Origin: Escherichia coli | GTDB lineage: Bacteria > Pseudomonadota > Gammaproteobacteria > Enterobacterales > Enterobacteriaceae | Length of the DNA: 64,000 nucleotides | Reading direction: 5' to 3' (one strand) | NCBI RefSeq assembly: GCF_003018255.1 | Contig: NZ_CP027440.1 | Shown: piece after piece, positions 27,587-46,771 of the stretch | Layout: each line of letters opens with the position of its first letter | Numbering within the stretch: position 1 is the first letter of the stretch | Notes under the pieces: generated by a model | Databases searched by the model: none | Seen by the model: the letters and a program-made list of their open reading frames with translations, nothing else | What the model was told of the DNA's origin: nothing | Made by a program: the position numbers and the translations under genes

Positions 27587-27588
27587 AT

Positions 27589-28068
27589 TTAAAAAATCCT
27601 TTCTTCCCAACAACTATATGATTCCGTACTCGCGATATGGTGCTTCCATGTTATATTTTTATAATTAAGAACAATGACCTCTTCCGGCTGATTACCCGCA
27701 TGTGTAATTGAGTGTGGATAACATGTCAGAATATTCGATAAATGTGCTCCTTGCAATTCAATTGTGTAAAACCTTTCAATACAACCGCCAGAATTAACTC
27801 TATAAAAATTAAATACAGCTGATAACTCTTCATTTTCAGAAAGAGCGGCATTTAATAAAGGGGAGGATTTATCTATTGGCTTGTAAAATTTTATGGGGTG
27901 ATGCACTACATTATACTCTCGACTTAAAGAATGGTCGAACTGTAAAACAAAAATTTCATCCACATGATTTATTTGATATTTATTACCAATAGATGCATAC
28001 GAACCACAACCCTCAGAGATCAAACCTTGTATTTTCCCTTTAATTGATAAGTATATGATATTTGACAT
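27589..28068 (-). CDS. hcp: Hcp family type VI secretion tube/effector-carrier protein (159 aa), orphan copy
   Basis: 159 aa, typical Hcp size; blocks HPIKFYKPIDKSSPLL and LNYKNITWKH...SYSCWEER align with canonical Hcp motifs (TPFxFTKEIDxSSPxL, ITWTY...SWNER); GGAG Shine-Dalgarno upstream of ATG; no other T6SS structural gene in the window. Confidence 0.85.
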   Translation of the reverse strand: MSNIIYLSIKGKIQGLISEGCGSYASIGNKYQINHVDEIFVLQFDHSLSREYNVVHHPIKFYKPIDKSSPLLNAALSENEELSAVFNFYRVNSGGCIERFYTIELQGAHLSNILTCYPHSITHAGNQPEEVIVLNYKNITWKHHIASTESYSCWEERIF

Positions 28069-29288: not shown

Positions 29289-30176
29289 TTAGCCATTCTT
29301 TCTTCCCGTTTTCAGTCCTCGATGGAAATCGTTAATTCGCTTAATGGTTTTAACCGCACGCTGCGGCACTGCGGAAGCTACCGACCAGACAATCATTTCC
29401 AGACACAACAATACCGTACCATGTAGCGGCGTTTTCCCTTTTTCATCCCCGCGCGGAACATGAATCACGATACTGGCGTCTTTGCTAAAACGTGAATCCA
29501 GCGCGTTTGTCAGCAAAATAACAGGGATCCCTAGCCGCCTCGCCTCACGAAGCGTTGTCAGCCCTTCCCGGTGCGCTGATTTTTGCGCCATCATGATCAG
29601 AACATCGCCACGTTGAAGCGCGATCAGTTGCTCGGCAAGGCCAATACCCGTACGGTTTAGTGCCGTGGCAGGCAAACCTATGCGGTTGAATAGTCGTGCG
29701 GTATAGTCCGCCAGAATACCCGAAGCGCCAATGCCAAAAATTGCGACTTGCCGTGCCTGCACCAACAACGCTACAGCTTGCGCAAGCGCGTGGCGGTTTT
29801 CAGGCTCTGACAGGACATTACAGGTATACAAATGCCCTTCAAGAACAAAGTCGATTGCGGTGTTAACATCGCTCGTCAAGTTACTCACCGTCGTAGACAT
29901 CTTTTCGCTGGAACTAAGGGCTGGACCAAGCCACTGTTCCAGAGTGCGTTTCAGATCACGCAGCCCGGCAAACCCCAGGGCCTGTATAGCCCTGATAACT
30001 GTGGCATCGGAAGTGTTCAACGTGGCCGCAATTTCCATCGCCGTTTGCTCGAGTACCACTTCACGATGCTCATTAATGTAGCTGGCGACAACTCTTAACC
30101 CAGGCGTTAACTGACTCGCGCGAGTGCGAAAACGCTCACCAAAAATATCAACCCGCACTTTATCTTTCTGGATCAT
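29289..30176 (-). CDS. RpiR/MurR-family transcriptional regulator (HTH_6 plus SIS domain), 295 aa
   Basis: N-terminal RpiR-type HTH (TSDATVIRAIQALGFAGLRDLK) and C-terminal SIS domain; the start ATG overlaps the stop of the upstream substrate-binding gene in an ATGA arrangement. Confidence 0.82.
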   Translation of the reverse strand: MIQKDKVRVDIFGERFRTRASQLTPGLRVVASYINEHREVVLEQTAMEIAATLNTSDATVIRAIQALGFAGLRDLKRTLEQWLGPALSSSEKMSTTVSNLTSDVNTAIDFVLEGHLYTCNVLSEPENRHALAQAVALLVQARQVAIFGIGASGILADYTARLFNRIGLPATALNRTGIGLAEQLIALQRGDVLIMMAQKSAHREGLTTLREARRLGIPVILLTNALDSRFSKDASIVIHVPRGDEKGKTPLHGTVLLCLEMIVWSVASAVPQRAVKTIKRINDFHRGLKTGRKNG

Positions 30177-31120
30177 TTAGCCTCCGGTAGAGGTCGCCCT
30201 GCAATTTGTGATTGTATCTGCGCAGCCATCAGCCCCAGAGATGCAAAGGAGTTAGAAATTGCCTCTTCACGAGAAATCAGCACATAACGCCCGGAACGAC
30301 AGGCAGTCAGAAACTGACACCATCCCGGCATGACTTTTTCCATTGCTGCCAGCTCATCCTGAGGTTTACCACCGGTGTCACCGCGCCAGGTTGCAAAAAC
30401 AAAATCGGCATCCAGTTCAGGTAAACGCTCCGCGCTCACATCCATTCGCCCACCTTCAGGAATGCTCTCAATCAGCGGCGGAAAACGAAAACCCGCATCG
30501 CGTAATACCCGCCCCAGCGAATGATAGCTATGCATCACATTAATTTTTCCCTGGTTTGCCTGAATCACCGATACCGTTATTTTTTGGCTGTCCAGCGTCG
30601 CCTTCAGCGCATTGATTTGTGCCTGATAGCGGCGTTCAAGTATCGCCAGCTGCGACTGCGTTCCTGTAAGTCCTGCCAGCTTGCGATAGATTTCTGGCGC
30701 ACCCCCTTTGAGATGATCAATGCTCACCGTGGGCGCAATTTTTTCAAGTTGTTCAATGGGCGTATTACGGGTCGGTTCTGTGATGATCAGGTCAGGCTTT
30801 GCCGCCACAATCGCTTCAATATCAATATCAGCGGTACCAATAAAGGCGATCGATGAATTATCAAAGTCGACACCTGTCAATAACGCGCCAGATCGAATGA
30901 AATGGCTACCGTCAGGCCGAGTTCGCCCGTGGCTGGCGACAGGAGGTACACCGAGCTCAATCAGAGGAATAGTGATATCAAGATCGTGTAAAGAGACAAT
31001 TCTCTTTGGATGAGCAGGAACAGTGACTTTGCGCCCTAAATCATCAGTAAATACCTGAACAGGTTCTGTTGCACGGGAAAAAAATGACAACAGTATCAGC
31101 AGAGAAAAAAATAAACGCAT
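30173..31120 (-). CDS. Periplasmic iron-siderophore/cobalamin-type ABC substrate-binding protein (FecB/FhuD-like), about 315 aa
   Basis: Start set at MRLFFSLLILLSFFSRA signal peptide with GGGAG Shine-Dalgarno (track ORF extends to 31183); class III binding-protein-like sequence; operon context with FecCD permeases. Confidence 0.82.
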   Translation of the reverse strand: MRLFFSLLILLSFFSRATEPVQVFTDDLGRKVTVPAHPKRIVSLHDLDITIPLIELGVPPVASHGRTRPDGSHFIRSGALLTGVDFDNSSIAFIGTADIDIEAIVAAKPDLIITEPTRNTPIEQLEKIAPTVSIDHLKGGAPEIYRKLAGLTGTQSQLAILERRYQAQINALKATLDSQKITVSVIQANQGKINVMHSYHSLGRVLRDAGFRFPPLIESIPEGGRMDVSAERLPELDADFVFATWRGDTGGKPQDELAAMEKVMPGWCQFLTACRSGRYVLISREEAISNSFASLGLMAAQIQSQIAGRPLPEAK

Positions 31121-31130
31121 ATAACTCCCG

Positions 31131-32180
31131 TTAAAAACTGTTCCTGCGCTGCCAGAGCAGTAGCAAAAAAAATGGTCCACCAATCAGTGAGATAATGATT
31201 CCGGCAGGCAGTTGCAAAGGCAAAAAAGCCAAACGACCAATGCTATCCGCCAGAATAACTAACAACGCCCCCGATACCGCGCTCCCCAGCAGTAATGTCG
31301 TCTGCCCGCCACGTAGAATAAAACGTGATATATGGGGTGCTATCAATCCGACAAAACCGATGTTACCAACACACGAAACGCAGACGGCTGTCAGGATTAT
31401 TGGTGCGGCGACACGTAACAACGCCAGACGAGAACTATTCACCCCTAACCCGGTTGCAACCTGATGACCAAGCAGAGCGATATCCGCCGTCCTGGCGGTG
31501 AACAGCAATAAAAGAGCGGCTGGCAACATCCAACAGGCTGAAATACCGACTAACATCCAGTTAGCTGCATGCAGGCTTCCCGATAACCACATCAATGCAG
31601 TTTGTACATCTCGAACATCTGCAGTGGTCATAAATACACCGATACCGGCGGCGAAAAACCAGGAAACACCAATACCAATCAGAACAAATCGCGGGCGGGA
31701 AATATCGCGCGCACAAAAAATCACGATTAAAGCCACCAACAAGCCACCAGCAAGACCAGCCACTGGACGCCAGAACATTCCCAGCATTGGAAACTGGAAA
31801 ATCAGCCACAGCACCGCCACGCTACATCCTTCTTTGACGCCGATTAAACCAGGATCGGCAAGGCCGTTACGCGCAATGGATTGCATCGCGGCCCCCGCCA
31901 TACCTAACATGGCTCCGCATAGCAATGCCATGATGACTCTCGGCAAGCGAATATCCTGCACAATATAACGTGCGTCTGTGCTTACGTTTTCTGGAGCAAA
32001 CAACGCTCGTCCTACTTCCGATGCCGGGACAGAAAAAGAACCCTGCATCAGACCGAATATCAGTATTCCAACCGCAAACAGAAACAGCCCACCAAGCAAC
32101 AGCAGATTTTTAGGGCGTACCAGTGTCGAAAACTTACCAACACGTAGTGGGCGTAGCCCGACGTTCATTATCCGACTCAT
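31131..32180 (-). CDS. FecCD-family ABC permease (349 aa)
   Basis: Polytopic membrane protein; FecCD/BtuC-type sequence; start overlaps the upstream permease stop. Confidence 0.85.
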   Translation of the reverse strand: MSRIMNVGLRPLRVGKFSTLVRPKNLLLLGGLFLFAVGILIFGLMQGSFSVPASEVGRALFAPENVSTDARYIVQDIRLPRVIMALLCGAMLGMAGAAMQSIARNGLADPGLIGVKEGCSVAVLWLIFQFPMLGMFWRPVAGLAGGLLVALIVIFCARDISRPRFVLIGIGVSWFFAAGIGVFMTTADVRDVQTALMWLSGSLHAANWMLVGISACWMLPAALLLLFTARTADIALLGHQVATGLGVNSSRLALLRVAAPIILTAVCVSCVGNIGFVGLIAPHISRFILRGGQTTLLLGSAVSGALLVILADSIGRLAFLPLQLPAGIIISLIGGPFFLLLLWQRRNSF

Positions 32181-33160
32181 TTGAACATCCTCGTCGCCAT
32201 AATGACAAAAACAGGCGCACCAACTAACGCCGTCATGACACCGGTCGCTAACTCATGGGGCGTGAAAAGCGTCCGGGCAATAATATCTGCCAGTAATAAC
32301 AAAAGTGCGCCGACACAAGCTGAAAGAGGGAGCAGAACGCGCAGATCCGCTGATACCAGACGCCGGACAATCTGCGGTACCAACAGGCCGACAAAACCAA
32401 TGGGGCCAGCAATCGATACGGCTGCGCCACAGAGCAACGCGATCGCAAGCAGGGTAAATGTTCGCGTGCGGAGTACAGAGACGCCCAGCCCCTGCGCCAT
32501 GCGATCGCCCAGTGCCAACATGTTAAGGTAGGGTGCAAGGTAAAGGGCTAACACAAATCCCCCCAGAGAAAACCAGGCGGACGTACCCAGCGTCGCCCAA
32601 TCCTGCCCCGCTAAATCACCTGCTAGCCATGTCCGCATCGCCAGCAGTGTTTGTTCGTCAAGAATCAGGATTGCAGCCGTTATTGAGGACACGAACGCCG
32701 ATAGCGCCACGCCGCATAAAGTAACTTTCATTGGCGTTACCCCTGAACGCCCTGCGGAGGAAAGCAGCAATATCAACAGGAACAATAACGCGCCCCCCGT
32801 AGATGCCAGCAGTGGGCGTCCAACCGGAAAGGCCAGTCCAAGCGCACTGGCGGCAACGACAGCAAGAGCGGCTCCGGCATTTAAGCCTAAAATATGTGGC
32901 TCCCCCAATGGGTTACGAATGACAGCCTGCAACAAAGCACCAGCAACACCAAGAGAAGCACCGGTAAGCAATGCTGCCGCTAAACGCGGCAAACGGAGTC
33001 TTACAATTACGTTGTGATCGAAGTTTTGCGGATCAAAATGAAGAAATGCCTGCAACACCGTTTGTGGTGCAATAAATCGGGCACCAATCCCTGGATATAC
33101 CACGCATCCCACCAGCAGTAAGGCGAGGAAAATTACAGTAACCAGCCCTGTGCGCATCAT
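32177..33160 (-). CDS. FecCD-family ABC permease (327 aa)
   Basis: Polytopic membrane protein paralogous to the adjacent permease; start overlaps the ATPase stop. Confidence 0.85.
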   Translation of the reverse strand: MMRTGLVTVIFLALLLVGCVVYPGIGARFIAPQTVLQAFLHFDPQNFDHNVIVRLRLPRLAAALLTGASLGVAGALLQAVIRNPLGEPHILGLNAGAALAVVAASALGLAFPVGRPLLASTGGALLFLLILLLSSAGRSGVTPMKVTLCGVALSAFVSSITAAILILDEQTLLAMRTWLAGDLAGQDWATLGTSAWFSLGGFVLALYLAPYLNMLALGDRMAQGLGVSVLRTRTFTLLAIALLCGAAVSIAGPIGFVGLLVPQIVRRLVSADLRVLLPLSACVGALLLLLADIIARTLFTPHELATGVMTALVGAPVFVIMATRMFK

Positions 33161-33966
33161 ACTTTTTCTACACCACGAAACGGCATGAAGAACGGCTTTC
33201 CCGTCAGAGGATTTATTGATGCGTGAACATCAACGTCAAAGACAGCTTTTACCAGCTCAGGCGTGCAATGCTCCCCCTCATTCAACACACGCACCACTTT
33301 CCCCTGGCGTAAAAATATCAACGTATCGCCATAATTGACGGCAAAATTCAGATCATGCAACACCACGACGACTGTACGCCCGTGATGACGCGTTAAATCA
33401 TGTAATAACTCAAGAATTTCAACCTGATAACGTAAATCAAGCCAGGTTGTGGGTTCATCCAGCAGGATATAAGGCGTCTTTTGCGCCAACACCATCGCAA
33501 TCCAGCAACGCTGGCGCTGCCCACCAGAGAGTTTTTCAACAGGTAAATGTGCAAACTCCTGCGTACCGGTTAATTTCAGGGCCTCTTCCACCGCCTGCTC
33601 ATCGGCGTCGCTCCATTGACGTATGAAATTTTGCCAGGGAAAACGCCCACGCGACACCAGTTCATAAACGGTTAAGCCCTCCGGCAATAATGGCGACTGC
33701 GGCAAGATCCCAAGTCTACGGGATAACGCTTTCGTTGGTTGCTCGTGAATCGCTTTGCCATCAAGCAATATCGAACCGCCCATAGGTTGCAAGATACGTG
33801 CAATGGTGCTGAGCAACGTCGACTTTCCACAGCCGTTTGCCCCAACCAGAACGGTCATTTTTTCTGTGGGAACGGAGAAAGAAACACCATCAACAATGAT
33901 CTTCTTGTGATACCCGGCAGAAACATTGTCGAGGATCAGCCCCTGCCCTTTTGCGTTATGTGCCAC
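33157..33966 (-). CDS. ABC transporter ATP-binding protein (FecE/FhuC-like), 269 aa
   Basis: Walker A GANGCGKST, ABC signature LSGGQRQR, Walker B ILLDEPT; GTG start. Confidence 0.88.
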   Translation of the reverse strand: MAHNAKGQGLILDNVSAGYHKKIIVDGVSFSVPTEKMTVLVGANGCGKSTLLSTIARILQPMGGSILLDGKAIHEQPTKALSRRLGILPQSPLLPEGLTVYELVSRGRFPWQNFIRQWSDADEQAVEEALKLTGTQEFAHLPVEKLSGGQRQRCWIAMVLAQKTPYILLDEPTTWLDLRYQVEILELLHDLTRHHGRTVVVVLHDLNFAVNYGDTLIFLRQGKVVRVLNEGEHCTPELVKAVFDVDVHASINPLTGKPFFMPFRGVEKV

Positions 33967-34220
33967 GTGTACGCCAACTTAATCAAAGACAAACAAAAAT
34001 AAAACTCATTCTCCTTTGAGAGTTTGACGCCACAAAATGTAGTAGTCAAGCAGTTAAAAGCCACACAAAAACAAGGTAAATAACAGGTAAAATATTTTTA
34101 TACATAAAAATAAAAACATTAAATATCAATAAATTAAAAGCAATCAAATTGTATAAGCCTTTCATAAAAACACATGTAGCAATTTTTTGTTATTTCTCAT
34201 TTACTACTACATTACTGCGT

Positions 34221-34240
34221 GATTGAATGATTCTCAATTA
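34221..34240 (+). promoter_or_regulatory. Putative Fur-box-like element upstream of the TonB-dependent receptor gene
   Basis: gattgaatgattctcaatta partially matches the Fur consensus, about 100 nt upstream of the receptor start within an AT-rich divergent promoter region; weak. Confidence 0.3.
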
Positions 34241-34339
34241 CATATCCGATGGCGAAATAACAAACGGATAGTGCTTAGTGAGCAATAAGAAACAATTTTC
34301 ACTCGCGACAATCCGCGAGTTTTTGGGATAACAGACTAA

Positions 34340-36481
34340 ATGGCTATGTTCACACCTTCATTCTCAGGACTCAAAGGTCGGGCGCTCTTTTCACTGCTTT
34401 TTGCGGCACCGATGATTCATGCAACAGACTCTGTAACGACCAAAGATGGCGAAACAATCACTGTTACAGCAGATGCAAATACCGCAACTGAGGCAACCGA
34501 TGGTTATCAACCTCTGAGCACCTCCACGGCGACATTAACCGATATGCCGATGCTGGATATCCCGCAGGTGGTCAATACGGTTAGCGATCAGGTTCTGGAA
34601 AACCAGAATGCGACGACGCTGGATGAGGCGCTTTATAACGTCAGTAACGTGGTACAGACCAATACATTAGGCGGGACTCAGGATGCTTTTGTACGCCGTG
34701 GGTTTGGCGCAAACCGGGATGGCTCCATCATGACCAACGGTCTGCGAACCGTACTTCCTCGCAGTTTCAACGCCGCCACAGAACGTGTGGAAGTGCTAAA
34801 AGGCCCGGCCTCCACGCTGTATGGCATTCTCGATCCTGGCGGACTGATTAACGTCGTGACCAAGCGCCCGGAAAAAACATTCCATGGTTCGGTTTCAGCC
34901 ACCTCCTCCAGTTTTGGTGGCGGCACTGGGCAACTTGATATCACAGGTCCCATTGAAGGCACTCAGCTGGCGTATCGCCTTACCGGGGAAGTGCAGGATG
35001 AAGATTACTGGCGAAACTTCGGTAAAGAGCGCAGTACATTTATTGCCCCGTCACTCACCTGGTTTGGTGATAATGCAACAGTAACCATGCTCTATTCCCA
35101 TCGGGACTATAAAACTCCGTTCGATCGTGGAACGATTTTCGACCTTACGACGAAACAGCCCGTAAACGTTGATCGAAAAATACGTTTTGACGAACCGTTT
35201 AATATTACAGATGGTCAGTCCGATCTGGCGCAACTCAACGCAGAATATCATCTCAATAGCCAGTGGACAGCGCGCTTTGATTACAGCTACAGCCAGGATA
35301 AATACAGCGATAATCAGGCGCGTGTTACCGCGTATGATGCAACGACAGGAACACTGACACGGCGTGTTGATGCAACTCAGGGATCTACCCAGCGTATGCA
35401 TGCTACTCGTGCGGATCTGCAAGGGAATGTTGATATTGCCGGATTCTATAATGAGATTCTGGGTGGGGTGTCATATGAATATTATGATCTTCTGCGTACA
35501 GATATGATTCGCTGTAAAAAAGCTAAAGATTTCAATATCTACAACCCTGTTTATGGTAATACCAGCAAATGTACAACGGTTTCGGCGTCGGACAGTGATC
35601 AGACGATCAAACAGGAGAGCTACTCAGCGTATGCACAGGACGCACTCTATCTGACCGATAACTGGATTGCCGTCGCCGGGATCCGCTATCAGTATTACAC
35701 GCAGTATGCGGGTAAAGGCCGTCCTTTTAATGTCAATACTGACAGCCGCGATGAACAATGGACTCCCAAACTGGGGTTGGTCTACAAACTGACGCCATCG
35801 GTATCCTTATTTGCCAATTATTCGCAAACATTTATGCCGCAGTCGTCAATTGCCAGCTACATTGGCGATCTTCCACCGGAATCATCTAATGCTTACGAAG
35901 TCGGGGCAAAATTCGAGCTATTCGATGGTATCACCGCAGATATTGCGCTGTTTGATATCCATAAACGTAATGTGTTGTATACCGAAAGTGTTGGTGATGA
36001 AACCATTGCCAAAACGGCAGGCCGTGTTCGTTCAAGAGGGGTAGAAGTCGACCTTGCGGGAGCATTAACTGAAAACATTAATATCATTGCCAGCTACGGC
36101 TATACCGATGCTAAGGTTCTGGAAGATCCTGATTATGCAGGTAAACCATTGCCGAATGTTCCTCGTCATACCGGTTCGCTATTCCTGACCTATGACATTC
36201 ATAACATGCCTGGCAATAACACACTGACGTTTGGCGGTGGTGGACATGGCGTAAGCCGTCGTTCGGCAACCAATGGGGCTGACTATTATCTGCCAGGCTA
36301 TTTTGTTGCCGATGCCTTCGCCGCATACAAAATGAAATTGCAGTATCCGGTCACACTGCAATTAAACGTCAAAAACCTGTTTGATAAAACGTATTACACC
36401 TCTTCCATCGCCACAAATAATCTGGGGAATCAGATTGGCGATCCGCGTGAAGTGCAATTCACGGTGAAAATGGAATTTTGA
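34340..36481 (+). CDS. TonB-dependent outer-membrane siderophore-type receptor (713 aa)
   Basis: Signal peptide, TonB-box-like ETITVTA, plug and barrel sequence blocks, C-terminal aromatic residue (..VKMEF); divergent from the ABC importer operon (arrangement resembles fit-type iron uptake loci; symbol not assigned). Confidence 0.9.
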   Translation: MAMFTPSFSGLKGRALFSLLFAAPMIHATDSVTTKDGETITVTADANTATEATDGYQPLSTSTATLTDMPMLDIPQVVNTVSDQVLENQNATTLDEALYNVSNVVQTNTLGGTQDAFVRRGFGANRDGSIMTNGLRTVLPRSFNAATERVEVLKGPASTLYGILDPGGLINVVTKRPEKTFHGSVSATSSSFGGGTGQLDITGPIEGTQLAYRLTGEVQDEDYWRNFGKERSTFIAPSLTWFGDNATVTMLYSHRDYKTPFDRGTIFDLTTKQPVNVDRKIRFDEPFNITDGQSDLAQLNAEYHLNSQWTARFDYSYSQDKYSDNQARVTAYDATTGTLTRRVDATQGSTQRMHATRADLQGNVDIAGFYNEILGGVSYEYYDLLRTDMIRCKKAKDFNIYNPVYGNTSKCTTVSASDSDQTIKQESYSAYAQDALYLTDNWIAVAGIRYQYYTQYAGKGRPFNVNTDSRDEQWTPKLGLVYKLTPSVSLFANYSQTFMPQSSIASYIGDLPPESSNAYEVGAKFELFDGITADIALFDIHKRNVLYTESVGDETIAKTAGRVRSRGVEVDLAGALTENINIIASYGYTDAKVLEDPDYAGKPLPNVPRHTGSLFLTYDIHNMPGNNTLTFGGGGHGVSRRSATNGADYYLPGYFVADAFAAYKMKLQYPVTLQLNVKNLFDKTYYTSSIATNNLGNQIGDPREVQFTVKMEF

Positions 36482-36509: not shown

Positions 36510-36588
36510 TGAGACTGATGACAAACTCCAAATTGTCTGATGCGCTACGCCCATCAGATCTACCATAGAAATTCAATATATTAAATTT

Positions 36589-37920
36589 TCATATATTTTT
36601 AGGCTGTAAACACACCTTAATCTGTTCGTAATATTCATTATTAATCAGATAAAATCTCATGATGAGTCCGGTAATCAGGTTAAGTATCGCGGGAATGATC
36701 GTCATTAACAGGCAGATCCCCCACAACGCCTGTGGTGTTTGTTCTACGCCAGGTTGATAGTCCATAAACGCTAAAGCGATTCCGATAAACCCTCCCGCCA
36801 GTCCCATACCAAACTTTTGAAAAAAGAGAATCCCGCCAAATGCCAGTCCAGAAACACGTTGCCCCGTTTTCATTTCACCATAATCCACTGACTCAGCAAT
36901 GGATGCCCAATAAATGGGAAGCTGAATATCAGTCAGAAAGGTCACCACAATATAAAATGTAAAAGCTAACACTATAGAATTTGGTTGCACGAAATACATC
37001 GCACCACCCACCACGAACGCCAGTAATTGGGTATAACGAAATATTTTTATTTTGTCGTAGAGTCGAGTAAGCCAGGTGCAAGCGATCATAGCCAGAACAG
37101 AGGCGATCACGCCTGAAGTTAAAAACGGTGAAATTAAAGCATCCCCACCATTCAGGTAATATTTTGCATAATATGCAGCGACAGAGTTACGAATAATCCC
37201 GCCAAACATAATGATCGCAATTACAGCGCCCAAAATGAGCCATTGATCATTTTTGATCAGTAACCGAAACTGCGCGGCCATACCGAGACTGGGTTTTGGA
37301 TGGTAGATGCGCTCTCTCACGCTAAAAAAACAATACAGGCATAAACACGTTGCCAGAATTCCCATTGCCCCCATTGCTATTTGATAACCCAGTTGTACGT
37401 TATTCTTCCCAAGATACATTGCAGATAAAGGAACAATAATTGTTACGGCGAACATGGCAATTTTTGTCATAACAAAACGATAACCATTGGCGCTCAATCG
37501 CTCTTGTGGATCATCCGTGATAACGCTGATTAATGAAACATAAGGAATAGCGATTAACGTATAGGTCAAGGTAAGTAACACATAGGTAGCCCAAGCCCAT
37601 AAAAGCTTAACTGAATAATCGGTATTAGGTGTGGTGAACATCAACCAAATGCTTATCCCAAACGGTATTGACATAAAAAGCAACCACGGCCGATATTTTC
37701 CCCAACGTGTATTCGTTCTGTCTGTCATTGTTCCCACAACTGGATCAATCACAGCATCAAGGATACGTACAGAAAATAACAGAATACCTAAGTCGACGGG
37801 TTTCAGACCAAATACATCCGTGTAAAAATAAGTGATGATCATGGCCAAAGACATCATTACTATCGCGATAGCCATATCACCAGCACCAAAACCTATCTTT
37901 TCATTTATTGTAAGTTTCAT
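36589..37920 (-). CDS. MFS/GPH-family glycoside-pentoside-hexuronide:cation symporter (about 443 aa)
   Basis: 12-TM-like hydrophobic profile with MelB/GPH-like N-terminal region (GFGAGDMA, DxxxDPxxG-like DAVIDPVVGTMTDR); start set at the ATG for MKLTINEK. Confidence 0.8.
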   Translation of the reverse strand: MKLTINEKIGFGAGDMAIAIVMMSLAMIITYFYTDVFGLKPVDLGILLFSVRILDAVIDPVVGTMTDRTNTRWGKYRPWLLFMSIPFGISIWLMFTTPNTDYSVKLLWAWATYVLLTLTYTLIAIPYVSLISVITDDPQERLSANGYRFVMTKIAMFAVTIIVPLSAMYLGKNNVQLGYQIAMGAMGILATCLCLYCFFSVRERIYHPKPSLGMAAQFRLLIKNDQWLILGAVIAIIMFGGIIRNSVAAYYAKYYLNGGDALISPFLTSGVIASVLAMIACTWLTRLYDKIKIFRYTQLLAFVVGGAMYFVQPNSIVLAFTFYIVVTFLTDIQLPIYWASIAESVDYGEMKTGQRVSGLAFGGILFFQKFGMGLAGGFIGIALAFMDYQPGVEQTPQALWGICLLMTIIPAILNLITGLIMRFYLINNEYYEQIKVCLQPKNI

Positions 37921-38206
37921 ACACAGCACTCATTGATTACGTGAACTTATATTAAAAACAAATATATCTGAACTCATTCAGCACATAACTTTACGAGTGA
38001 GCATAAATGCATTGGTTGATACCACAACAAACCATTGAGTCAATATTGAGCAACATCACATAAAAACCAATTTCACTTAATCTCATGATTTATATATTTA
38101 ATTGTGGTTTTTTCTGTTTTATGTCACAGATAGTGAACAAGCACCATGCGTAATAAAAGTTAAAGAATGTAGAGTTGGTATCAACCACTTGAAATGAGGC
38201 TTTGTC

Positions 38207-38959
38207 ATGATAAAAATTTATAAAGCCAGTAAAGGTCAGCTAAAGCATCGTGAAATCTTTGATGAAATAAAGAAAAAAGTAGATAACGGTGAATGGAAAG
38301 AAGGCAAAGCCATACCGACAGAAAGGGAATTGTCAGAATATTATTTAAGTAGCAGAACAACTATTCGAAAGGCAATAGAAAGTCTTAAACAACGCGGCTA
38401 CCTGCATAGTGTCCACGGGCAAGGAACATTTGTATTGCCTTCTCGTAGTAGAGAAAATCATTTATTGCATAGTTTTACCGACGATATTAAAGCTCGAGGT
38501 GGTATACCAGCACAGAATATTCTTGAGATAGGCTATGTTCCTGTCAGTGATGTTATCAGAAAAAATCTCGACCTGGATATCCATATCCAAACCGTATTCT
38601 GTATAAAACGCGTTCGCTATATGGGAAGTACCCCCCTGGGTATTCAGACATCATGGCTTGCATTAAATGACAGGCAAGAAATAACCCAAGAAGATCTGCT
38701 GGCGACGGGTTCGCTCTATATTTTACTGGAAGAAAAACTCGCTATTAAACCTTTAGAAGCAACAGAAATTATCTCTGCCCGGCTTCCCTCGCCCCTTGAG
38801 CGTCAATTACTGGAACTGACTGCCGATGATGTCGTATTAAGTTGTACCCGCGTCACGTTATCCGTGGAACGCAAACCAATGGAGTATGTAGAGATGGTGT
38901 ATCCCGCAAGCCGGTACTCCTACAAAGCACGAATTACAAAAGACAGTTTTAGCGTGTAA
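38207..38959 (+). CDS. GntR/HutC-family transcriptional regulator with UTRA effector domain (250 aa)
   Basis: N-terminal GntR winged HTH (PTERELSEYYLSSRTTIRKAIESL) and a C-terminal domain of UTRA length. Confidence 0.85.
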   Translation: MIKIYKASKGQLKHREIFDEIKKKVDNGEWKEGKAIPTERELSEYYLSSRTTIRKAIESLKQRGYLHSVHGQGTFVLPSRSRENHLLHSFTDDIKARGGIPAQNILEIGYVPVSDVIRKNLDLDIHIQTVFCIKRVRYMGSTPLGIQTSWLALNDRQEITQEDLLATGSLYILLEEKLAIKPLEATEIISARLPSPLERQLLELTADDVVLSCTRVTLSVERKPMEYVEMVYPASRYSYKARITKDSFSV

Positions 38960-38972
38960 CAGAGAGAATATT

Positions 38973-40049
38973 GTGAACAAAATAGAACAAGCTGTAATTT
39001 ATAACAAAATATTAGGTTCTTTAGCCTGCGCAGGTATGGGCGATGCATTAGGCGCAGCGACTGAACTCTACAGCATTGATGAAATAAAAGCTCAATGGGG
39101 AGGTTTTTTAAATGCCTTTGTTTCTCCTCCTGCCGATACATTCGCTGGCTCATTAAATGGTATTGCGGGACTTATCACCGACGATTCCAGCCAAATGTAT
39201 GTGTTTTCAGAAGGGTTAATTGAGGCTGGATTTGATAACTTCACCAATAATGACTGGTTAGCTTGTCTTCTGCGTTGGGCCGATATGCAGCCCTACGCAA
39301 ATTATAAAGGCCCCACAACAGAACAAATCGTCAAGGCACTAAAAGAAGGTAGACCAACAAACACCATTGGGCGTATTGGAACATCTTCTCGTCAGGCACC
39401 CAATGTCGGCACCACGAATGGAGCAGGAATGCGTGTAGCCCCTGCAGGATTGATCTGGCCAGGCAAGAAAGAAAAAGCGTGTCACCTGGCGCTAATAACT
39501 TGCCTACCTTCGCATGACACCAATATTGCGATTGCCAGCGCTTGCGCCATCGCTGCGGCGACATCACAAGCTATGTTACCAGAAGCTTCGCTCACATCAT
39601 TACTGGACGCCGCAATCTGGGGAGCGAATTACGGCGAACGCCTGGCCAAACAATATGCACGATGTGTCGCAGGGCCATCTATCGCCATGCGCATCCAACT
39701 TGCAGCGGACATCGCCAGACGAGCCAATGACCTGGAGTCTTGTCTGCGAGAAATGGAAGGTTTGGTTGGTAACTCTGTTGCCGCCCATGAATCCATTCCT
39801 GCGGCAATCGGTCTATTGCTGTACTGCAAAGGAGAACCCTGGGAAACCATTCATGCCTGCGCCAATATTGGCAATGACACCGATAGCATCGCTACGATGG
39901 CAGGCGCAATTGCAGGGGCATGGCGCGGTTTTGATGCGCTCCCTGAAGATAAATATGCCTTTTTCCGCGCCGTAAATAATAAAGATTTCGATATTGAAGC
40001 GATCGCATCGGGTCTGACATTGCTTGCATTAGAGGCACAGGAGAAATAA
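38973..40049 (+). CDS. ADP-ribosylglycohydrolase (ARH/DraG) family protein (358 aa)
   Basis: N-terminal GSLACAGMGDALGAATE and C-terminal NIGNDTDSIATMAGAIAGAW blocks match the two conserved ARH-family metal-binding regions. Confidence 0.8.
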   Translation: MNKIEQAVIYNKILGSLACAGMGDALGAATELYSIDEIKAQWGGFLNAFVSPPADTFAGSLNGIAGLITDDSSQMYVFSEGLIEAGFDNFTNNDWLACLLRWADMQPYANYKGPTTEQIVKALKEGRPTNTIGRIGTSSRQAPNVGTTNGAGMRVAPAGLIWPGKKEKACHLALITCLPSHDTNIAIASACAIAAATSQAMLPEASLTSLLDAAIWGANYGERLAKQYARCVAGPSIAMRIQLAADIARRANDLESCLREMEGLVGNSVAAHESIPAAIGLLLYCKGEPWETIHACANIGNDTDSIATMAGAIAGAWRGFDALPEDKYAFFRAVNNKDFDIEAIASGLTLLALEAQEK

Positions 40050-41047
40050 TGAACATGCCAGCCCGTACTCCTGTTATGCCATTAGCGCAAACTCGTGAGG
40101 AGATAAATGCTACGGCGGCATCGTTACGCCATTTGGCAGCTATCTGGGGTGAATGTTTTTCTACTTTTCAGCTCGATAAACGTGCTGTTGAACGCGTCTG
40201 TATAGTGGGATCGGGCGACTCCTGGACGGTGGCACTATGTGCCGCCGCCTGGCTGGGGAAATACACACATCTGTTTTGTTACGCATTGCAAACGTGGGAT
40301 TTTCTTCAGACTGATTTAACCCGTTATCAGAAAGAAACGTTAATCATTATTCTCAGTGCAAGTGGCAGACCATCAATGACCGTTGACGCCCTCTGCCACG
40401 CAGTATGCTCAAACGCGCAAGTGCTGGGTGTGACGAATTGCCCTGGAACACCATTTTGCGCAATAACAGAAAACATGCTCTATACATGGGCGAATAAGCA
40501 GGGTATTCCAACGCAAAGTAGTAGCGTCACACTTTATGCCCTCCTGCGCTTAGCGCAAAAATTATGTCCAGGCTTAACACCACTGCAGATTGAAGATGAT
40601 TTGGAAGGGAAATTTAGCCAGATTAATCAGCACTGGCAGCAAAAGAAGCGCCATTTTTACCAACAAAAAGAGATAACGTTTCTTGGGAGTGGCTTAAGTT
40701 GGGGACTGGCAATATCGGGGAGCAATTTACTTTCTTGCGGCCCACAGATTCGTGCGACAGCCCTTCCACTGGAAGAATTTTATCATTCATTACGCTTACA
40801 TCAGGCTGGTGTCGGTCAGCATTATATTTTACTACCAGCCACATCCTGCGAGTCCCCATTTTACCTTGCAACCCAAAAAGCAATTGTTGAACAGGGAGCG
40901 ACAGCAGAATTAATCAGTTTTATACCTGACGCCAGTGAGTCCAACAATTTATTTCTGGTCATGCAGTGGTTATATGAAATGTGCTGGAATTTAAGTTGTG
41001 ATTATGTCGACGCAGGCGGGCAACGCGTTAGCCATAGGGAGAAATAA
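40049..41047 (+). CDS. Double-SIS-domain sugar-phosphate isomerase/deglycase-like protein (FrlB/AgaS-like), 332 aa
   Basis: Two SIS-like segments (VCIVGSGDSW...IIILSASGRPSMTVDA and ITFLGSGLSWGLA...); its start overlaps the ARH stop by 1 nt (TAATG). Confidence 0.72.
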   Translation: MNMPARTPVMPLAQTREEINATAASLRHLAAIWGECFSTFQLDKRAVERVCIVGSGDSWTVALCAAAWLGKYTHLFCYALQTWDFLQTDLTRYQKETLIIILSASGRPSMTVDALCHAVCSNAQVLGVTNCPGTPFCAITENMLYTWANKQGIPTQSSSVTLYALLRLAQKLCPGLTPLQIEDDLEGKFSQINQHWQQKKRHFYQQKEITFLGSGLSWGLAISGSNLLSCGPQIRATALPLEEFYHSLRLHQAGVGQHYILLPATSCESPFYLATQKAIVEQGATAELISFIPDASESNNLFLVMQWLYEMCWNLSCDYVDAGGQRVSHREK

Positions 41048-41051
41048 GACT

Positions 41052-41966
41052 ATGAAGAAATTTGATGTCGCCGCTTTAGGCAGTGGAAATATAGATATTT
41101 TTTTATCTATCCCGTCACTCCCCACTCGTGGCGGTAAAGTTGTCGGGACACGTCTGGGTGAACAAGCTGGCGGCACAGTCGCCAACAGTGCCTGTGCGAT
41201 GGGACAACTGGGTCTCAATGTGGTATCTGTTTCATGTGTGGGCAATGATCATTCAGCCTCGATCATTCTTGATGGATTTAAAAAATATCATGTAAATTGT
41301 GATTTCGTTCAGGTAATTCCGGAATTGATTGCCAATACCGCGATTATCTTTATTGATGAATTAGGTGAAAAAACGTTGGTTTACTCGCCTGGTAGTGATC
41401 ATGAGTGGGATAAAGAAAAAGCCCTGCAGGCAATTGCGCAAAGCCGTTATTTTTATACGATGCCAGCAGATATCGAGAAATTTCGTATGCTGGCCGAATA
41501 TTCCCGTAGCCAGATGACAAAAGTTGTCGTTGATATTGAGCCTCATATCATTGCAACACCTGAACACCTTGCCAGAATTTTACACCTTGCTGATATTGCG
41601 ATATTTAATTATGACGGTTTTATTCGTGGCTATGCAACAGAGCCAGATTTTACACTTCTGCATGATATACAAGACGAGTATCAACTTGACGCTGTCGTGG
41701 TTACGCTGGATGTTAGGGGAGTAATTGCAGTCAAAGGCAATGAGCAAGTAAAAATAGGTAGTTATACAATTCCCGTTATTGATACCACAGGCGCTGGAGA
41801 TACTTTTAATGGTGCATTTGTTTATAGCTTAATAAAAAATATGCCCTTAATTGAAGCACTAAAATTTGCTTCTGCCACAGCAGCAATAAATATTACTGCA
41901 TTAGGTGCCAGAGGTCATCTGCCGACACCATCGGAGGTTAATCTTTTTCTTTCACAACACGACTAA
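41052..41966 (+). CDS. PfkB-family carbohydrate kinase (ribokinase-like), about 304 aa
   Basis: PfkB signature DTTGAGDTFNGAF near the C-terminus and a glycine-rich N-terminal lid; start set at MKKFDVAALGSG, 5 nt after the SIS stop. Confidence 0.85.
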   Translation: MKKFDVAALGSGNIDIFLSIPSLPTRGGKVVGTRLGEQAGGTVANSACAMGQLGLNVVSVSCVGNDHSASIILDGFKKYHVNCDFVQVIPELIANTAIIFIDELGEKTLVYSPGSDHEWDKEKALQAIAQSRYFYTMPADIEKFRMLAEYSRSQMTKVVVDIEPHIIATPEHLARILHLADIAIFNYDGFIRGYATEPDFTLLHDIQDEYQLDAVVVTLDVRGVIAVKGNEQVKIGSYTIPVIDTTGAGDTFNGAFVYSLIKNMPLIEALKFASATAAINITALGARGHLPTPSEVNLFLSQHD

Positions 41967-41993
41967 AATCATATATATACAAAGGTAAATATC

Positions 41994-43118
41994 ATGAAAA
42001 TAAGATATGCCGCTATTTTTCTGGCATTACCGCTGTTATGCACAACAGCGCAGGCAAACAGTTTTCTTCATTATGCTGGGGAGTTTAACTTCCGGACGGG
42101 AGAAAAGCAGAACAATGTCACAATCGCGGGGCTATCAGCCATCACATTTGATGCAAAAAAAAATATTTTCTATGCTATTAACGATAGCAGAAACAATAAT
42201 AAAGAAGGAGATGCCAGTCTTTATACACTAAAAATACAGGTATCATCCAGGGGCATTGAGCAAGTGAATTTTCTCAACCAGCGTCCACTGCTTGATGCAA
42301 AACAGCAACCTTTCGTGACCAATACGGTGGATGCCGAAGGTCTGGCCCTGACACACAATGGTAAATCATTACTCTGGAGTTCGGAGTTAGGTGCTCCACT
42401 GCGTCTGAGCACTCTCGATGGCGTAATGGAGAAAGATTTTACGTCTTTATTTCCTGCTCGCTTTAATATTAGTTCTGACAAAGAGAGCAGCAATGGTATT
42501 CGCAGCGGCAACGCCTGGGAGGGCCTGACAGTTACACCAGATGGAAAATCACTTTTTATCGCCGTTGAAAGCAGCCTTAAACAGGATGGGCCTATTGCAA
42601 GTCCAATAAATTCAGGCACATCACGCTTACTGCAATTTTCTATAGATGCAGACGGTCGACCTTCAAAGCAATTGCATGAATATCTCTATATTACTGATCC
42701 TGTTCCGCAAGTGAGTAAGTTCGGTATTAATGATAATGGCGTATCCGAGGTCATGGCGCTGAATGATCACCAATTGTTGGTCATCGAACGTTCCGGCAGA
42801 AACGTCAGTGCTGGGTTCAATGACTGGGATTACTCTGTCAGAGTTTATATGGTCGATTTAACTGCTGCCAGCGATATCAAGAATATTGACAGTCTGCAAG
42901 ATTGGTCCAATAAATCCACGTTACAACCCGTCAGTAAAAAATTATTAATTGATTTTGCTGATTACACTTCCTCTGCGGATTGTATTGAAGGGGTAACCTT
43001 CGGTCCTCTGATTGATGGGCATACATCGTTAATATTTGTATCTGATAATAATTTCCAGCCCCATCAACAGACGAAATTTTATCTATTCATTGATAAGGAA
43101 AACAAACTTAAAATTTAA
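41994..43118 (+). CDS. Secreted beta-propeller phytase-like / esterase-like protein (374 aa) with signal peptide
   Basis: Signal peptide MKIRYAAIFLALPLLCTTAQA; repeated EGLxxTxDGKSLFIAxE and IEGVT blocks resembling beta-propeller phytase-like proteins; family assignment is tentative. Confidence 0.5.
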   Translation: MKIRYAAIFLALPLLCTTAQANSFLHYAGEFNFRTGEKQNNVTIAGLSAITFDAKKNIFYAINDSRNNNKEGDASLYTLKIQVSSRGIEQVNFLNQRPLLDAKQQPFVTNTVDAEGLALTHNGKSLLWSSELGAPLRLSTLDGVMEKDFTSLFPARFNISSDKESSNGIRSGNAWEGLTVTPDGKSLFIAVESSLKQDGPIASPINSGTSRLLQFSIDADGRPSKQLHEYLYITDPVPQVSKFGINDNGVSEVMALNDHQLLVIERSGRNVSAGFNDWDYSVRVYMVDLTAASDIKNIDSLQDWSNKSTLQPVSKKLLIDFADYTSSADCIEGVTFGPLIDGHTSLIFVSDNNFQPHQQTKFYLFIDKENKLKI

Positions 43119-43213
43119 AGTCAAACTATAGATACAAAAACATTCTAATACATGGAATCATCAGATGGTGTATTCGATCACCAAAAATATATTTTATTCT
43201 GAAAGGGAATATT

Positions 43214-43948
43214 ATGAATTCTTATCTTAAAATATCACTTGCAGGAATAACAATGTTATCCTGCCTGTCACCTACACTAGTCTGTGCAGAACAGCCGCAT
43301 GGATTTATTGATTATCGCCATGAGTATCTTGATGATACTCGCACCCACGCGGACCGCGTTGAATTTGGTACATTTTTTAGTAATGGTATCGGTTTGATGG
43401 GAGAATTACGCTATAACACCGATGAAGGTGATAAAGATAAGTGGGACCCCTCACAATTTGGCAATAACGGAACAGGATTATCTGTTGTTTACCGCTTTAA
43501 GCCGCTGGATGACAAAAAATTCTGGTTAGAACCCATGTTCTGGCTTGATACCACGCAATATTGGTCAACTTACGAATATGGTCTTTCTGCGGGTTATGAC
43601 TTCAGCAAAGAATGGAAAGTTTCAGGTCGGTTTCGTTATGACATGGATAAAGCCACCGATAAATCCAAAGGTTATGGCAACGATGATCGTAATAACCGCC
43701 GTTACGATGTGTGGATCGACTATCGACCACAAAAAACCAACTTCCAATATCAGTTAAACCTGGTCTATTACAATAATGGTTATTTAACCTGGAATGATGG
43801 CCATAAAAACTATACCGCATCATTTAAAGTAGGGTACAAAATGGGATCGTGGATACCCTATATGAGTATTGCGGATTATAAAGGTGTGGATAAAACATCA
43901 AGTAATCGCCAAATCCGCTGGCGCTGGGGTCTGACTTATACTTTCTAA
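43214..43948 (+). CDS. KdgM/NanC-family small outer-membrane porin (244 aa)
   Basis: Signal peptide, about 220-aa mature protein with alternating amphipathic beta-strand pattern rich in Y/W/R/D, C-terminal ...WGLTYTF aromatic terminus; resembles oligogalacturonate/sialic-acid-specific porins. Confidence 0.7.
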   Translation: MNSYLKISLAGITMLSCLSPTLVCAEQPHGFIDYRHEYLDDTRTHADRVEFGTFFSNGIGLMGELRYNTDEGDKDKWDPSQFGNNGTGLSVVYRFKPLDDKKFWLEPMFWLDTTQYWSTYEYGLSAGYDFSKEWKVSGRFRYDMDKATDKSKGYGNDDRNNRRYDVWIDYRPQKTNFQYQLNLVYYNNGYLTWNDGHKNYTASFKVGYKMGSWIPYMSIADYKGVDKTSSNRQIRWRWGLTYTF

Positions 43949-43961
43949 TCTGGAATAAAAA

Positions 43962-44831
43962 ATGAATAATAAATTTAAAATCATTCTCTGGATGATGCTC
44001 TCTGCTCTGCCTGCTTTATCTTACGCACAGGTAAAAAATATAGTTACTGGCGAATATAGTGCGGTCAGTAAAATTATCACAGAAAAGGAAACTCTCTATC
44101 CATCCGATAAGATATTATTGGTTTTTGACATTGATAACACGTTATTAACGAGTGGCACTCGCATTGGCGGTGATATCTGGTATCAATGGCAAACCGATAA
44201 ATTGCCTTTAAAGCCGGATGACTCGCAAAAAGTTCCTTGCCTGTATGAAAATACAATCAGTATGCTTTACGAACTTAGCCCTATGCAGCTTACCGAGCCA
44301 CAGTTACCGACAATGTTAAAACAGTGGCAACAAAAGCATACCGCTTTTGCTCTGACATCCCGTGCACCGGATACTCTCTTTCCGACATTGCGGGAATTAA
44401 AGCGAAACGGCATTGATTTTTCGTCTTCCGCACTCAGGAAGAAAGAGGATACTTTGCCACCCTTTGAAAAAGGGAAACTCAAACGGTCATGGCTGTACAG
44501 CCAGGGGGTATTTTTTTCTTCCGGGCAAGATAAAGGCGTAATTCTCGATTATATGCTGGATAAAATGGGGAACAAATATGACGCGATTGTTTTTATCGAT
44601 GACGGGCAAGCAAACATTCATGCGATGACGAAGATGTTCTCTAAGGATAAATGGTCCTCTACGGATTTTACCATTATTCACTATACCAGAGTGGAGGATG
44701 AGCTTATTAAACAACAAGGTGCAGTAATAACAACTGCACAAGCAGAAAAAATGGCTACGGACTGGAAAACTCTGGCTGGTTCGCTGGCAACACTATTTCC
44801 AGATCGTAATAAACTGTGCCCAATAAAATAA
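43962..44831 (+). CDS. Secreted HAD-superfamily hydrolase/phosphatase-like protein (289 aa)
   Basis: Signal peptide MNNKFKIILWMMLSALPALSYA; HAD motif I DxDxT (VFDIDNTLL) and later FIDDGQAN aspartate motif. Confidence 0.6.
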   Translation: MNNKFKIILWMMLSALPALSYAQVKNIVTGEYSAVSKIITEKETLYPSDKILLVFDIDNTLLTSGTRIGGDIWYQWQTDKLPLKPDDSQKVPCLYENTISMLYELSPMQLTEPQLPTMLKQWQQKHTAFALTSRAPDTLFPTLRELKRNGIDFSSSALRKKEDTLPPFEKGKLKRSWLYSQGVFFSSGQDKGVILDYMLDKMGNKYDAIVFIDDGQANIHAMTKMFSKDKWSSTDFTIIHYTRVEDELIKQQGAVITTAQAEKMATDWKTLAGSLATLFPDRNKLCPIK

Positions 44832-44839
44832 TCAACGAC

Positions 44840-44868
44840 AACCCGGCAAAACACATGTTTGCCGGGTT
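44840..44868. terminator. Hairpin between the island's last gene and parE
   Basis: Seen in sequence: aacccggcaaa-acacatg-tttgccgggtt, 11-bp perfect stem; no strong T-run. Confidence 0.4.
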
Positions 44869-44875
44869 AAGATTA

Positions 44876-46771
<1,896 letters not shown>

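Follow-up and report, generated by a model that had tools for sequence, protein, structure and literature searches.

In a 64,000-nucleotide stretch of Escherichia coli DNA (contig NZ_CP027440.1; hereafter the window), three consecutive genes at positions 41994 to 44831 encode a five-bladed beta-propeller of Pfam family PF13449, a KdgM-family outer-membrane channel and a HAD-superfamily phosphatase of family DUF2608, all three predicted to be exported. We propose with moderate confidence that this trio represents the extracytoplasmic half of a locus that is controlled by a GntR/HutC regulator and scavenges a phosphorylated ribose compound of nucleotide origin. An earlier note on this DNA had described the three proteins as a front end in which a substrate is dephosphorylated or trimmed and taken in via a channel of its own, to supply the symporter and cytoplasmic enzymes encoded upstream. 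That central idea is supported in silico, by synteny through nine further contexts, by candidate operators and by equal counts of 408 genomes for the trio and the catabolic core, while the nucleoside or nucleotide flavour of the locus, the interchange of DUF2608 with UshA-type nucleotidases and the linkage to ADP-ribosyltransferase (ART) genes in other genera go beyond it.

In the proposed route, the small KdgM-family channel would admit an anionic phosphorylated solute into the periplasm, where the propeller would cleave a phosphodiester or pyrophosphate bond and the DUF2608 enzyme would remove the remaining phosphomonoester. The neutral riboside or nucleoside-like glycoside would then enter via a GPH-family symporter, and its ribosyl glycosidic bond would be cut in the cytoplasm by a YegU-like ADP-ribosylglycohydrolase-family enzyme (ARH). 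A ribokinase-like PfkB kinase would phosphorylate the sugar before or after this cleavage, and a SIS-domain protein would isomerise or deglycate the sugar phosphate. The GntR/HutC repressor would act on paired TGGT-N4-ACCA operators, to be released by a pathway intermediate. Protein families, modelled folds, catalytic motifs, rule-based export signals, an operon-like organisation, synteny and candidate operators were observed directly, and from these we infer the identity of the substrate and every enzymatic step.

Families, folds and export signals of the trio

A rule-based check of n-, h- and c-regions together with an AxA site found a Sec-type signal peptide in each trio protein, in agreement with what the earlier note had claimed, and predicted cleavage between AQA and NS (residue 22) in the propeller, VCA and EQ (residue 26) in the channel and SYA and QV (residue 23) in the DUF2608 protein. 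None of the cytoplasmic neighbours has a positive N-terminus placed directly before a strongly hydrophobic core, and several of them contain chance AxA-like sites. In the AlphaFold models of the propeller and the DUF2608 protein, the first 20 residues or so are unstructured or of low confidence and the folds start just past them. By these signals, all three proteins are predicted to be exported. A lipoprotein identity of the propeller was considered and rejected; the P-L-L preceding Cys16 forms no lipobox and the cysteine is not conserved.

The channel gene (43214..43948, plus strand) encodes a protein matching PF06178 (KdgM) over residues 31-244 with an E-value of 3.6e-30, and its residues 32-244 align with residues 3-216 of the solved KdgM structure 4fqe (E 1.4e-11), so that the family assignment made earlier is borne out. 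Its C-terminus (GLTYTF) is the usual outer-membrane signature and, combined with the predicted signal peptide, indicates outer-membrane targeting. Orthologues with 59-80% identity were found in Klebsiella, Kosakonia, Enterobacter and Vibrio clusters.

The presence of a KdgM-type porin had been called unusual in this context, a view that did not survive comparison with K-12, in which ompL adjoins the GPH transporter genes yihO and yihP in the sulfoquinovose locus, OmpL being a member of the KdgM family. As in the cluster, an outer-membrane channel gene there lies beside a GPH carrier and catabolic enzymes (the adjacency was verified in K-12), and the cluster symporter is 28% identical to YihO. 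KdgM and NanC are also encoded in substrate-specific loci, KdgM together with TogT, and NanC provides a further example of a porin with a carrier. By contrast, similarity of the cluster porin to OmpL is weak (E 0.007), and it belongs to a subfamily of its own, that of the Klebsiella, Kosakonia and Vibrio clusters. It is also paired with periplasmic phosphoesterases, whereas the ompL, KdgM-TogT and NanC loci are without them.

The propeller (41994..43118, plus strand) matches PF13449 over residues 44-354 (E 2.8e-67; model positions 3-284 of 284), the sole family reported by the Pfam search, and its AlphaFold model has five blades. Pfam names this family Phytase-like, or "esterase-like activity of phytase", and "phytase" is in this case a Pfam label and not a function. 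Neither the six blades nor the phytase hidden Markov model match of a Bacillus-type beta-propeller phytase (PF02333) was found, and no Bacillus phytase was among the best 60 structural matches of the model. A true phytase identity was rejected on blade number and lack of phytase matches. Of the tentative phytase-like assignment made previously, the full-length family match stands but a Bacillus-type enzyme does not. Similarly, a search for the EGLxxTxDG pattern, described before as repeated blocks, returned two good copies (EGLALTHNG at 115 and EGLTVTPDG at 176), with a looser repeat, EGVTFGP, seen in the translation at about residue 332; "repeated" was therefore an overstatement.

PDB sequence searches with the propeller and with the DUF2608 protein gave no match at E <= 1, and fold comparison was used for this reason. 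One structural neighbour of the propeller model is a calcium-dependent nucleotidase. An alignment of 24 propeller sequences at 38-70% identity contains 54 invariant columns, many of them D, E, R or N residues that recur in each blade where strand 2 begins and where strand 3 ends. This blade-wise recurrence therefore places them on one face of the propeller. Such a one-face pattern is as expected of a metal-dependent hydrolase and suggests a phosphoesterase role.

The DUF2608 protein (43962..44831, plus strand) matches PF11019 over residues 35-275 (E 5.8e-60; model positions 8-238 of 244). All four HAD motifs (DxDxT, S/T, K and DD) are present and its model has a Rossmann-like HAD core fold, bearing out the previous description of a HAD-motif (DIDNT) hydrolase. 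Across 36 sequences at 40-87% identity, D56, D58, T60, R134, K191, D213 and D214 are invariant and T132/S133 nearly so (at least 90%); the DIDNT motif itself, D56-T60 within LLVFDIDNTLL, is invariant in all of them, as are two cysteines, C93 and C286. The best structural matches of the AlphaFold model are class C acid phosphatases. The bipartite signature of class B and C acid phosphatases (HAD IIIB) has G-D-x-x-x-D as its second half; the DUF2608 protein carries D213-D214 at that point, and it appears not to be a canonical class C enzyme.

In homologous loci that have no DUF2608 gene, its slot is taken by proteins of the UshA 5'-nucleotidase type. Those of Kosakonia and V. vulnificus exceed the UshA equivalog cut-off of 600 bits (scores of 672 and 703), and close UshA-type homologues occupy the slot in Trabulsiella, E. 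bugandensis and a 79-kb plasmid. K. oxytoca, Enterobacter BIGb0383 and a metagenome contig have DUF2608, as E. coli does. Given the motifs, the fold and this interchange with UshA, we predict phosphatase chemistry of an acid phosphatase- or nucleotidase-like kind for DUF2608.

That both exported enzymes plausibly act on phosphoesters raises the possibility that the locus serves general phosphate scavenging, or a real use of phytate or inositol phosphates, with the porin admitting organophosphates. The Pfam name of the propeller family points the same way, and a study of phosphate limitation in cyanobacteria names a protein of the PF13449 type. However, beyond the Pfam result with its single family, the trio sits within a carbon-catabolic operon whose GntR/HutC regulator has candidate operators of its own, and no Pho-type regulator gene is present in or beside the cluster, Pho-box sites not having been searched for. 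Genes for a glycosidase and a sugar kinase are the constant companions of the trio, together with an importer and nucleoside functions, and no phosphate transporters are among them. We consider this explanation improbable.

Probable operon organisation and distribution in E. coli

The trio closes an eight-gene cluster in which a GPH symporter gene on the minus strand is followed on the plus strand by genes for the GntR/HutC regulator, ARH, the SIS protein, the PfkB kinase, the propeller, the KdgM porin and the DUF2608 phosphatase. It thus forms the 3' end of a seven-gene same-strand unit from which the symporter gene diverges. The placement of the trio downstream of the catabolic core, as noted before, was confirmed, with gaps of 27 nucleotides between PfkB and propeller, 95 between propeller and KdgM, and 13 between KdgM and DUF2608. 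Gaps across all seven genes range from -1 to 95 nucleotides, a plausible ribosome-binding site precedes each gene, and translation of ARH is coupled to that of the SIS protein and the kinase. No terminator-like site with a G+C-rich stem directly before a T-run was found inside the unit; a terminator consensus scan gave four weak matches, three within the SIS gene and one within the GntR gene. In the 95-nucleotide gap, neither a plus-strand promoter-like nor a terminator-like site was detected. Strand, gaps, shared genome counts and predicted operators suggest that the seven genes form one operon. Downstream, a hairpin at 44840..44868 (AACCCGGCAAA-ACACATG-TTTGCCGGGTT, with an 11-bp stem) separates the stop codon of DUF2608 from that of the convergent parE and is probably a bidirectional terminator; it was missed by the consensus scan because it has no T-run.

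Two candidate operators of the GntR/HutC regulator were located in the divergent promoter region between symporter and regulator, TGGTTGATACCA at 38013..38024 and TGGTATCAACCA at 38176..38187, the latter 20 nucleotides upstream of the regulator start codon. Across the 64 kb, only two sites match the degenerate pattern TGGTWKMWACCA exactly, and both are in this intergenic region. TGGT-N4-ACCA is the usual operator shape of the HutC subfamily. Each of the homologous loci from enterobacteria has a pair of such sequences, spaced 154-179 bp, in the corresponding intergenic region, with the half-sites conserved and the central four bases varying. In K. oxytoca, where KdgM and DUF2608 belong to a separate unit, a second pair precedes that unit, and in Vibrio one site precedes each unit, including that of KdgM, propeller and UshA.

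The cluster has a G+C content of 0.42, compared with 0.49 for the fit genes and 0.53 for parE-yqiA (0.49-0.54 for the flanks overall), and is inserted between ygiN/fit and parE. Copies of the trio segment (41900-44900) with 100% identity are present in several complete E. coli genomes. Among 5426 complete E. coli genomes, the core (36550-41990) was found in 408 and the trio segment likewise in 408 (405 for each at a coverage of at least 80%), while the fit iron-uptake system was found in 1872. These counts indicate that trio and core are one accessory unit gained separately from fit. The cluster is chromosomal in every carrier (~7.5% of these genomes), and many carriers are poultry, pig and human isolates. 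We regard the cluster as a horizontally acquired, low-GC accessory island.

The published fit genes (fitR, fitBCDE and fitA; 29289-36481) directly adjoin the cluster at the ygiN-parE hotspot, and the published fit papers describe this adjacent iron system and do not mention the cluster. A separate low-GC patch (0.39) at 26876-28068, between ygiZ and mdaB, is annotated in an identical genome as carrying a hypothetical gene and an orphan type VI secretion gene of the Hcp family. The trio itself is annotated in RefSeq by family name only.

The ARH gene (38973..40049, plus strand) is annotated as such in RefSeq, with PF03747 in orthologues, and E. coli K-12 YegU is its closest named relative (32% identity, E 7e-39). 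In the PDB it matches MJ1187 (2.5e-21) and ARH3 (~1e-9), its acidic metal-binding motifs are kept (TDD at 69-71 and NDTD at 301-304), and with 68-80% identity across loci it is the best-conserved protein of the cluster. The PfkB-family kinase (41052..41966, plus strand, start codon as in RefSeq) is ribokinase-like, matching TIGR02152 at 3.1e-43 with 148 bits, below the cut-off of 300. The SIS-domain protein (40049..41047, plus strand) is related to the isomerase half of GlmS and to FrlB, although its NCBIfam matches (GlmS 3.6e-10 and FrlB 5e-4) are far under their cut-offs; its PDB match is 3fkj at 5e-6. The regulator (38207..38959, plus strand) carries a UTRA effector domain, matches NCBIfam models of HutC, PhnF and TreR-type repressors, all under equivalog cut-offs, and is 26% identical to YegW/GgaR. 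The inner-membrane importer (36589..37929, minus strand) is a GPH-family cation symporter by TIGR00792 (gph; 348 bits against a cut-off of 231), resembling glucuronide and xyloside carriers.

Homologous loci and the possible nature of the substrate

Homologous contexts were collected by exact-protein look-ups and by one scan of a genome collection with the propeller alignment (7 loci, 3 of them relevant). Beyond the E. coli window, nine further contexts were found in Enterobacterales, one of them on a plasmid, and in Vibrio, and through all of them the gene order is reshuffled and the association kept. The invariant set comprises GntR, ARH, SIS, PfkB, the PF13449 propeller, the KdgM porin, an importer and one exported phosphatase. 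K. oxytoca has ARH-SIS-PfkB-propeller and a separate unit of XapX, adenosine deaminase, KdgM and DUF2608. Kosakonia, Trabulsiella, E. bugandensis and the plasmid share the order GntR-ARH-SIS-PfkB-propeller-UshA-like together with a divergent KdgM-symporter unit, to which XapX and adenosine deaminase are added in Kosakonia and E. bugandensis, the deaminase only on the plasmid and neither in Trabulsiella. Enterobacter BIGb0383 and the metagenome contig have symporter-Tsx-propeller-KdgM-DUF2608, and in V. vulnificus a KdgM-propeller-UshA-like unit diverges from Tsx and from GntR, a Bmp-family ABC importer, ARH, SIS and PfkB. The GPH symporter is conserved beside the cluster in the enterobacterial loci, with the Bmp-family importer in its place in Vibrio; Bmp-family binding proteins are nucleoside-binding.

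Frequent additions in these loci are Tsx-like channels and an adenosine deaminase (474 against an equivalog cut-off of 459) alongside a XapX-domain protein. The XapX peptide is hydrophobic and 54-56 residues in length, and in the Klebsiella, Kosakonia and E. bugandensis clusters it never occurs apart from the adenosine-deaminase-like gene (L002:12241-12408; L004:3418-3582, minus strand; L019:3543-3713, minus strand). In Klebsiella pneumoniae, a 442-residue protein (P0043) joins SIS (PF01380) and Phytase-like (PF13449) domains in one chain, and probably represents a deletion or fusion inside the cluster in some genomes of that species. The Vibrio copy abuts a tyrosine recombinase and three proteins without a family match (L022:13941-19481), and the plasmid copy (L018) is flanked by insertion sequence elements, flanks that are consistent with a mobile cluster.

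An uptake system for an acidic oligosaccharide such as oligogalacturonate or sialic acid, in which the exported enzymes trim a sugar polymer, would agree with the KdgM-family match and with the likeness of the symporter to glucuronide and xyloside carriers. We nevertheless judge it very unlikely. None of the clusters carries genes for the catabolism of pectin, uronate or sialate, the GPH carrier gives way to a Bmp-type ABC importer in Vibrio, and a HAD phosphatase and a UshA nucleotidase are without a role in a plain glycan pathway; moreover, the structural matches of the propeller to GH43-type folds have 4-11% identity.

In six of the nine contexts outside E. coli, a gene with an R-S-E type ART domain lies next to the cluster, at most one or two genes away (among them L002:2267-5209; L004:12792-14093, minus strand; L019:927-1736; L009:2436-3479, minus strand; L020:2522-3514, minus strand), and none was found in the plasmid locus or the Vibrio cluster. 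In K. oxytoca the ART domain forms the C-terminal end of a TccC/Rhs protein and in E. bugandensis that of an Rhs protein; in Kosakonia and Trabulsiella it belongs to a protein of 433 residues, and in Enterobacter BIGb0383 and the metagenome contig to one of 330-347 residues encoded directly after PfkB. These domains carry YRG/FRG, STS/STT and QxE motifs, with a Pfam ART match at 5.6e-6, and are 25-39% identical between genera and up to 92% identical among the Kosakonia and Trabulsiella copies.

One explanation of this adjacency is an ADP-ribosylation conflict module of the Tre1/Tri1 kind, in which ARH serves as the immunity or reversal enzyme against the neighbouring ART toxins and the trio is either metabolically unlinked or detoxifying. 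A faint ART match to 6dre_B (E 0.025), which we take to be the Tre1 toxin chain of the Tre1-Tri1 complex, agrees with this, as do the Pfam ART matches and the proximity of ART genes in Klebsiella, Kosakonia, Trabulsiella and Enterobacter. ARH also gives a weak local match to the Tri1 model, and immunity by Tri1-type ARH proteins is established (review PMC8120803). However, that match scores 22 bits against an equivalog cut-off of 490, and the nearest named relative of ARH is instead YegU, whose operon joins an ARH to a transporter and a kinase. The full cluster occurs without any ART gene in E. coli, on the plasmid and in Vibrio, and the position and orientation of ART relative to ARH vary, never following a toxin-then-immunity order, whereas ARH is coupled to SIS and kinase genes under a sugar-type repressor. 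PADLOC, run on the six cluster proteins and two ART-like proteins, reported 0 families, on which ground an anti-phage defence system was also rejected. A conflict module is therefore an improbable account of the cluster.

For the riboside scavenging that we favour, an ADP-ribose-type substrate is our tentative choice, because a compound derived from ADP-ribose fits the ARH, adenosine deaminase, nucleotidase and nucleoside-importer genes together. Phosphoribosyl-AMP from poly-ADP-ribose, for example, would be converted to ribosyl-adenosine, and ADP-ribosylated amino acids or peptides would give ribosyl-amino acids. A bolder version, which we put forward as no better than a long shot worth keeping in mind, is that the propeller and phosphatase would turn poly- or mono-ADP-ribosylated material into ribosyl-adenosine or ribosyl-amino acids plus adenosine for cleavage by ARH, and that in several genera this harvest would be coupled to the cell's own R-S-E ART toxins, either Tc/Rhs C-terminal domains or stand-alone effectors, so that the cell would both make and feed on, or clean up, ADP-ribosylated products. 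The ART adjacency could accordingly reflect such toxin-harvest coupling, linkage inherited with the island or, less likely, Tri1-like immunity by ARH.

Several observations weigh against riboside scavenging by the E. coli locus. The window contains no adenosine deaminase, XapX, Tsx or ART genes, and the nucleoside and ADP-ribose flavour thus rests on genes found elsewhere and absent in E. coli. The closest structural matches of the propeller, glutaminyl cyclase and YjiK, are not phosphoesterases, and the propeller could instead be a binding protein or catalyse other chemistry. PF13449 homologues with 30-39% identity in Rhizobium, Carnimonas and Flavisolibacter stand alone in unrelated neighbourhoods, as does a DUF2608 gene of Vibrio splendidus; because such distant homologues stand alone, membership in either family by itself does not fix function. 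The SIS protein is the least explained part of the cluster, and a role for it is not natural in a plain ribose pathway. The signal peptides were assigned by rule and not by a trained predictor. In the literature searched, no paper mentioned DUF2608, and PF13449 or "esterase-like activity of phytase" appeared in incidental annotation mentions only. The same literature contained nothing combining "ADP-ribosylglycohydrolase" with "oligogalacturonate-specific porin".

Related systems and implications

Loci that serve the catabolism of one substrate and have a porin and periplasmic trimming enzymes of their own are familiar, and the cluster is a new form of them. A functional precedent is the NAD route of H. 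influenzae (OmpP2 porin, NadN, e(P4), PnuC and NadR). There the porin admits the dinucleotide, which is stripped to a neutral riboside in the periplasm by a pyrophosphatase/nucleotidase of the UshA family together with a class C acid phosphatase of the HAD type, and the riboside is imported and then phosphorylated by a cytoplasmic ribosyl kinase. The cluster resembles this route in that the DUF2608 model is nearest to class C acid phosphatases and DUF2608 is replaced by a UshA-type protein in relatives. It differs in being without PnuC or NadR, in probably forming one regulated operon and in adding the PF13449 propeller, ARH and SIS, and DUF2608 appears to lack the G-D-x-x-x-D half of the class B and C acid phosphatase signature. 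In the fructoselysine (frlABCDR) and fructose-asparagine (Salmonella fra) loci, a SIS deglycase is found with a PfkB-type kinase and a regulator of the GntR family, and fra adds a periplasmic trimming enzyme. The cluster shares the regulator, kinase and SIS combination, with a weak match of its SIS protein to FrlB (5e-4). By contrast, its FrlB and FrlD scores are far under the cut-offs, and the frl and fra loci are not known to contain an ARH, porin or phosphatase.

A second functional precedent is given by the ribose-utilisation (Rus) loci of Bacteroidetes, where ribokinases, an importer and a regulator are accompanied by a changing set of enzymes that release ribose, ADP-ribosylglycohydrolases and phosphatases among them, and the authors of that work propose ribose harvest from nucleosides, cofactors and (poly)ADP-ribose (bioRxiv 10.1101/574913). 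The cluster similarly unites ribokinase, importer, regulator and ribose-releasing enzymes in one locus. Rus loci, however, rely on SusC/D machinery at the outer membrane and come from another phylum, and no KdgM porin or DUF2608 is listed in their description, on which this comparison is based and from which no orthology is claimed. The K-12 locus yegTUV-yegW (GgaR) resembles the cluster in pairing a transporter with an ARH of the YegU type (32% identity) and a PfkB kinase (22%), under a GntR/HutC repressor (26%). Unlike the cluster, it has no SIS gene, exported enzymes or porin, and it is a core K-12 locus as opposed to an accessory island. Neither the function of yegTUV nor the substrate of YegU-like ARH proteins has been assigned (PMC10819704).

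The occurrence of DUF2608, PF13449 and a YegU-like ARH in one conserved, regulated context provides a short list of testable substrates for these families, and the cluster, given its carriers in E. coli, Klebsiella, Enterobacter, Kosakonia and Vibrio, may mark a specific nutrient niche in animal hosts. If the ADP-ribose reading is true, it would for the first time assign a physiological function to the YegU-like ARH clade of bacteria and functions to DUF2608 and PF13449, and would describe a bacterial route consuming a eukaryotic signalling polymer or a toxin product.

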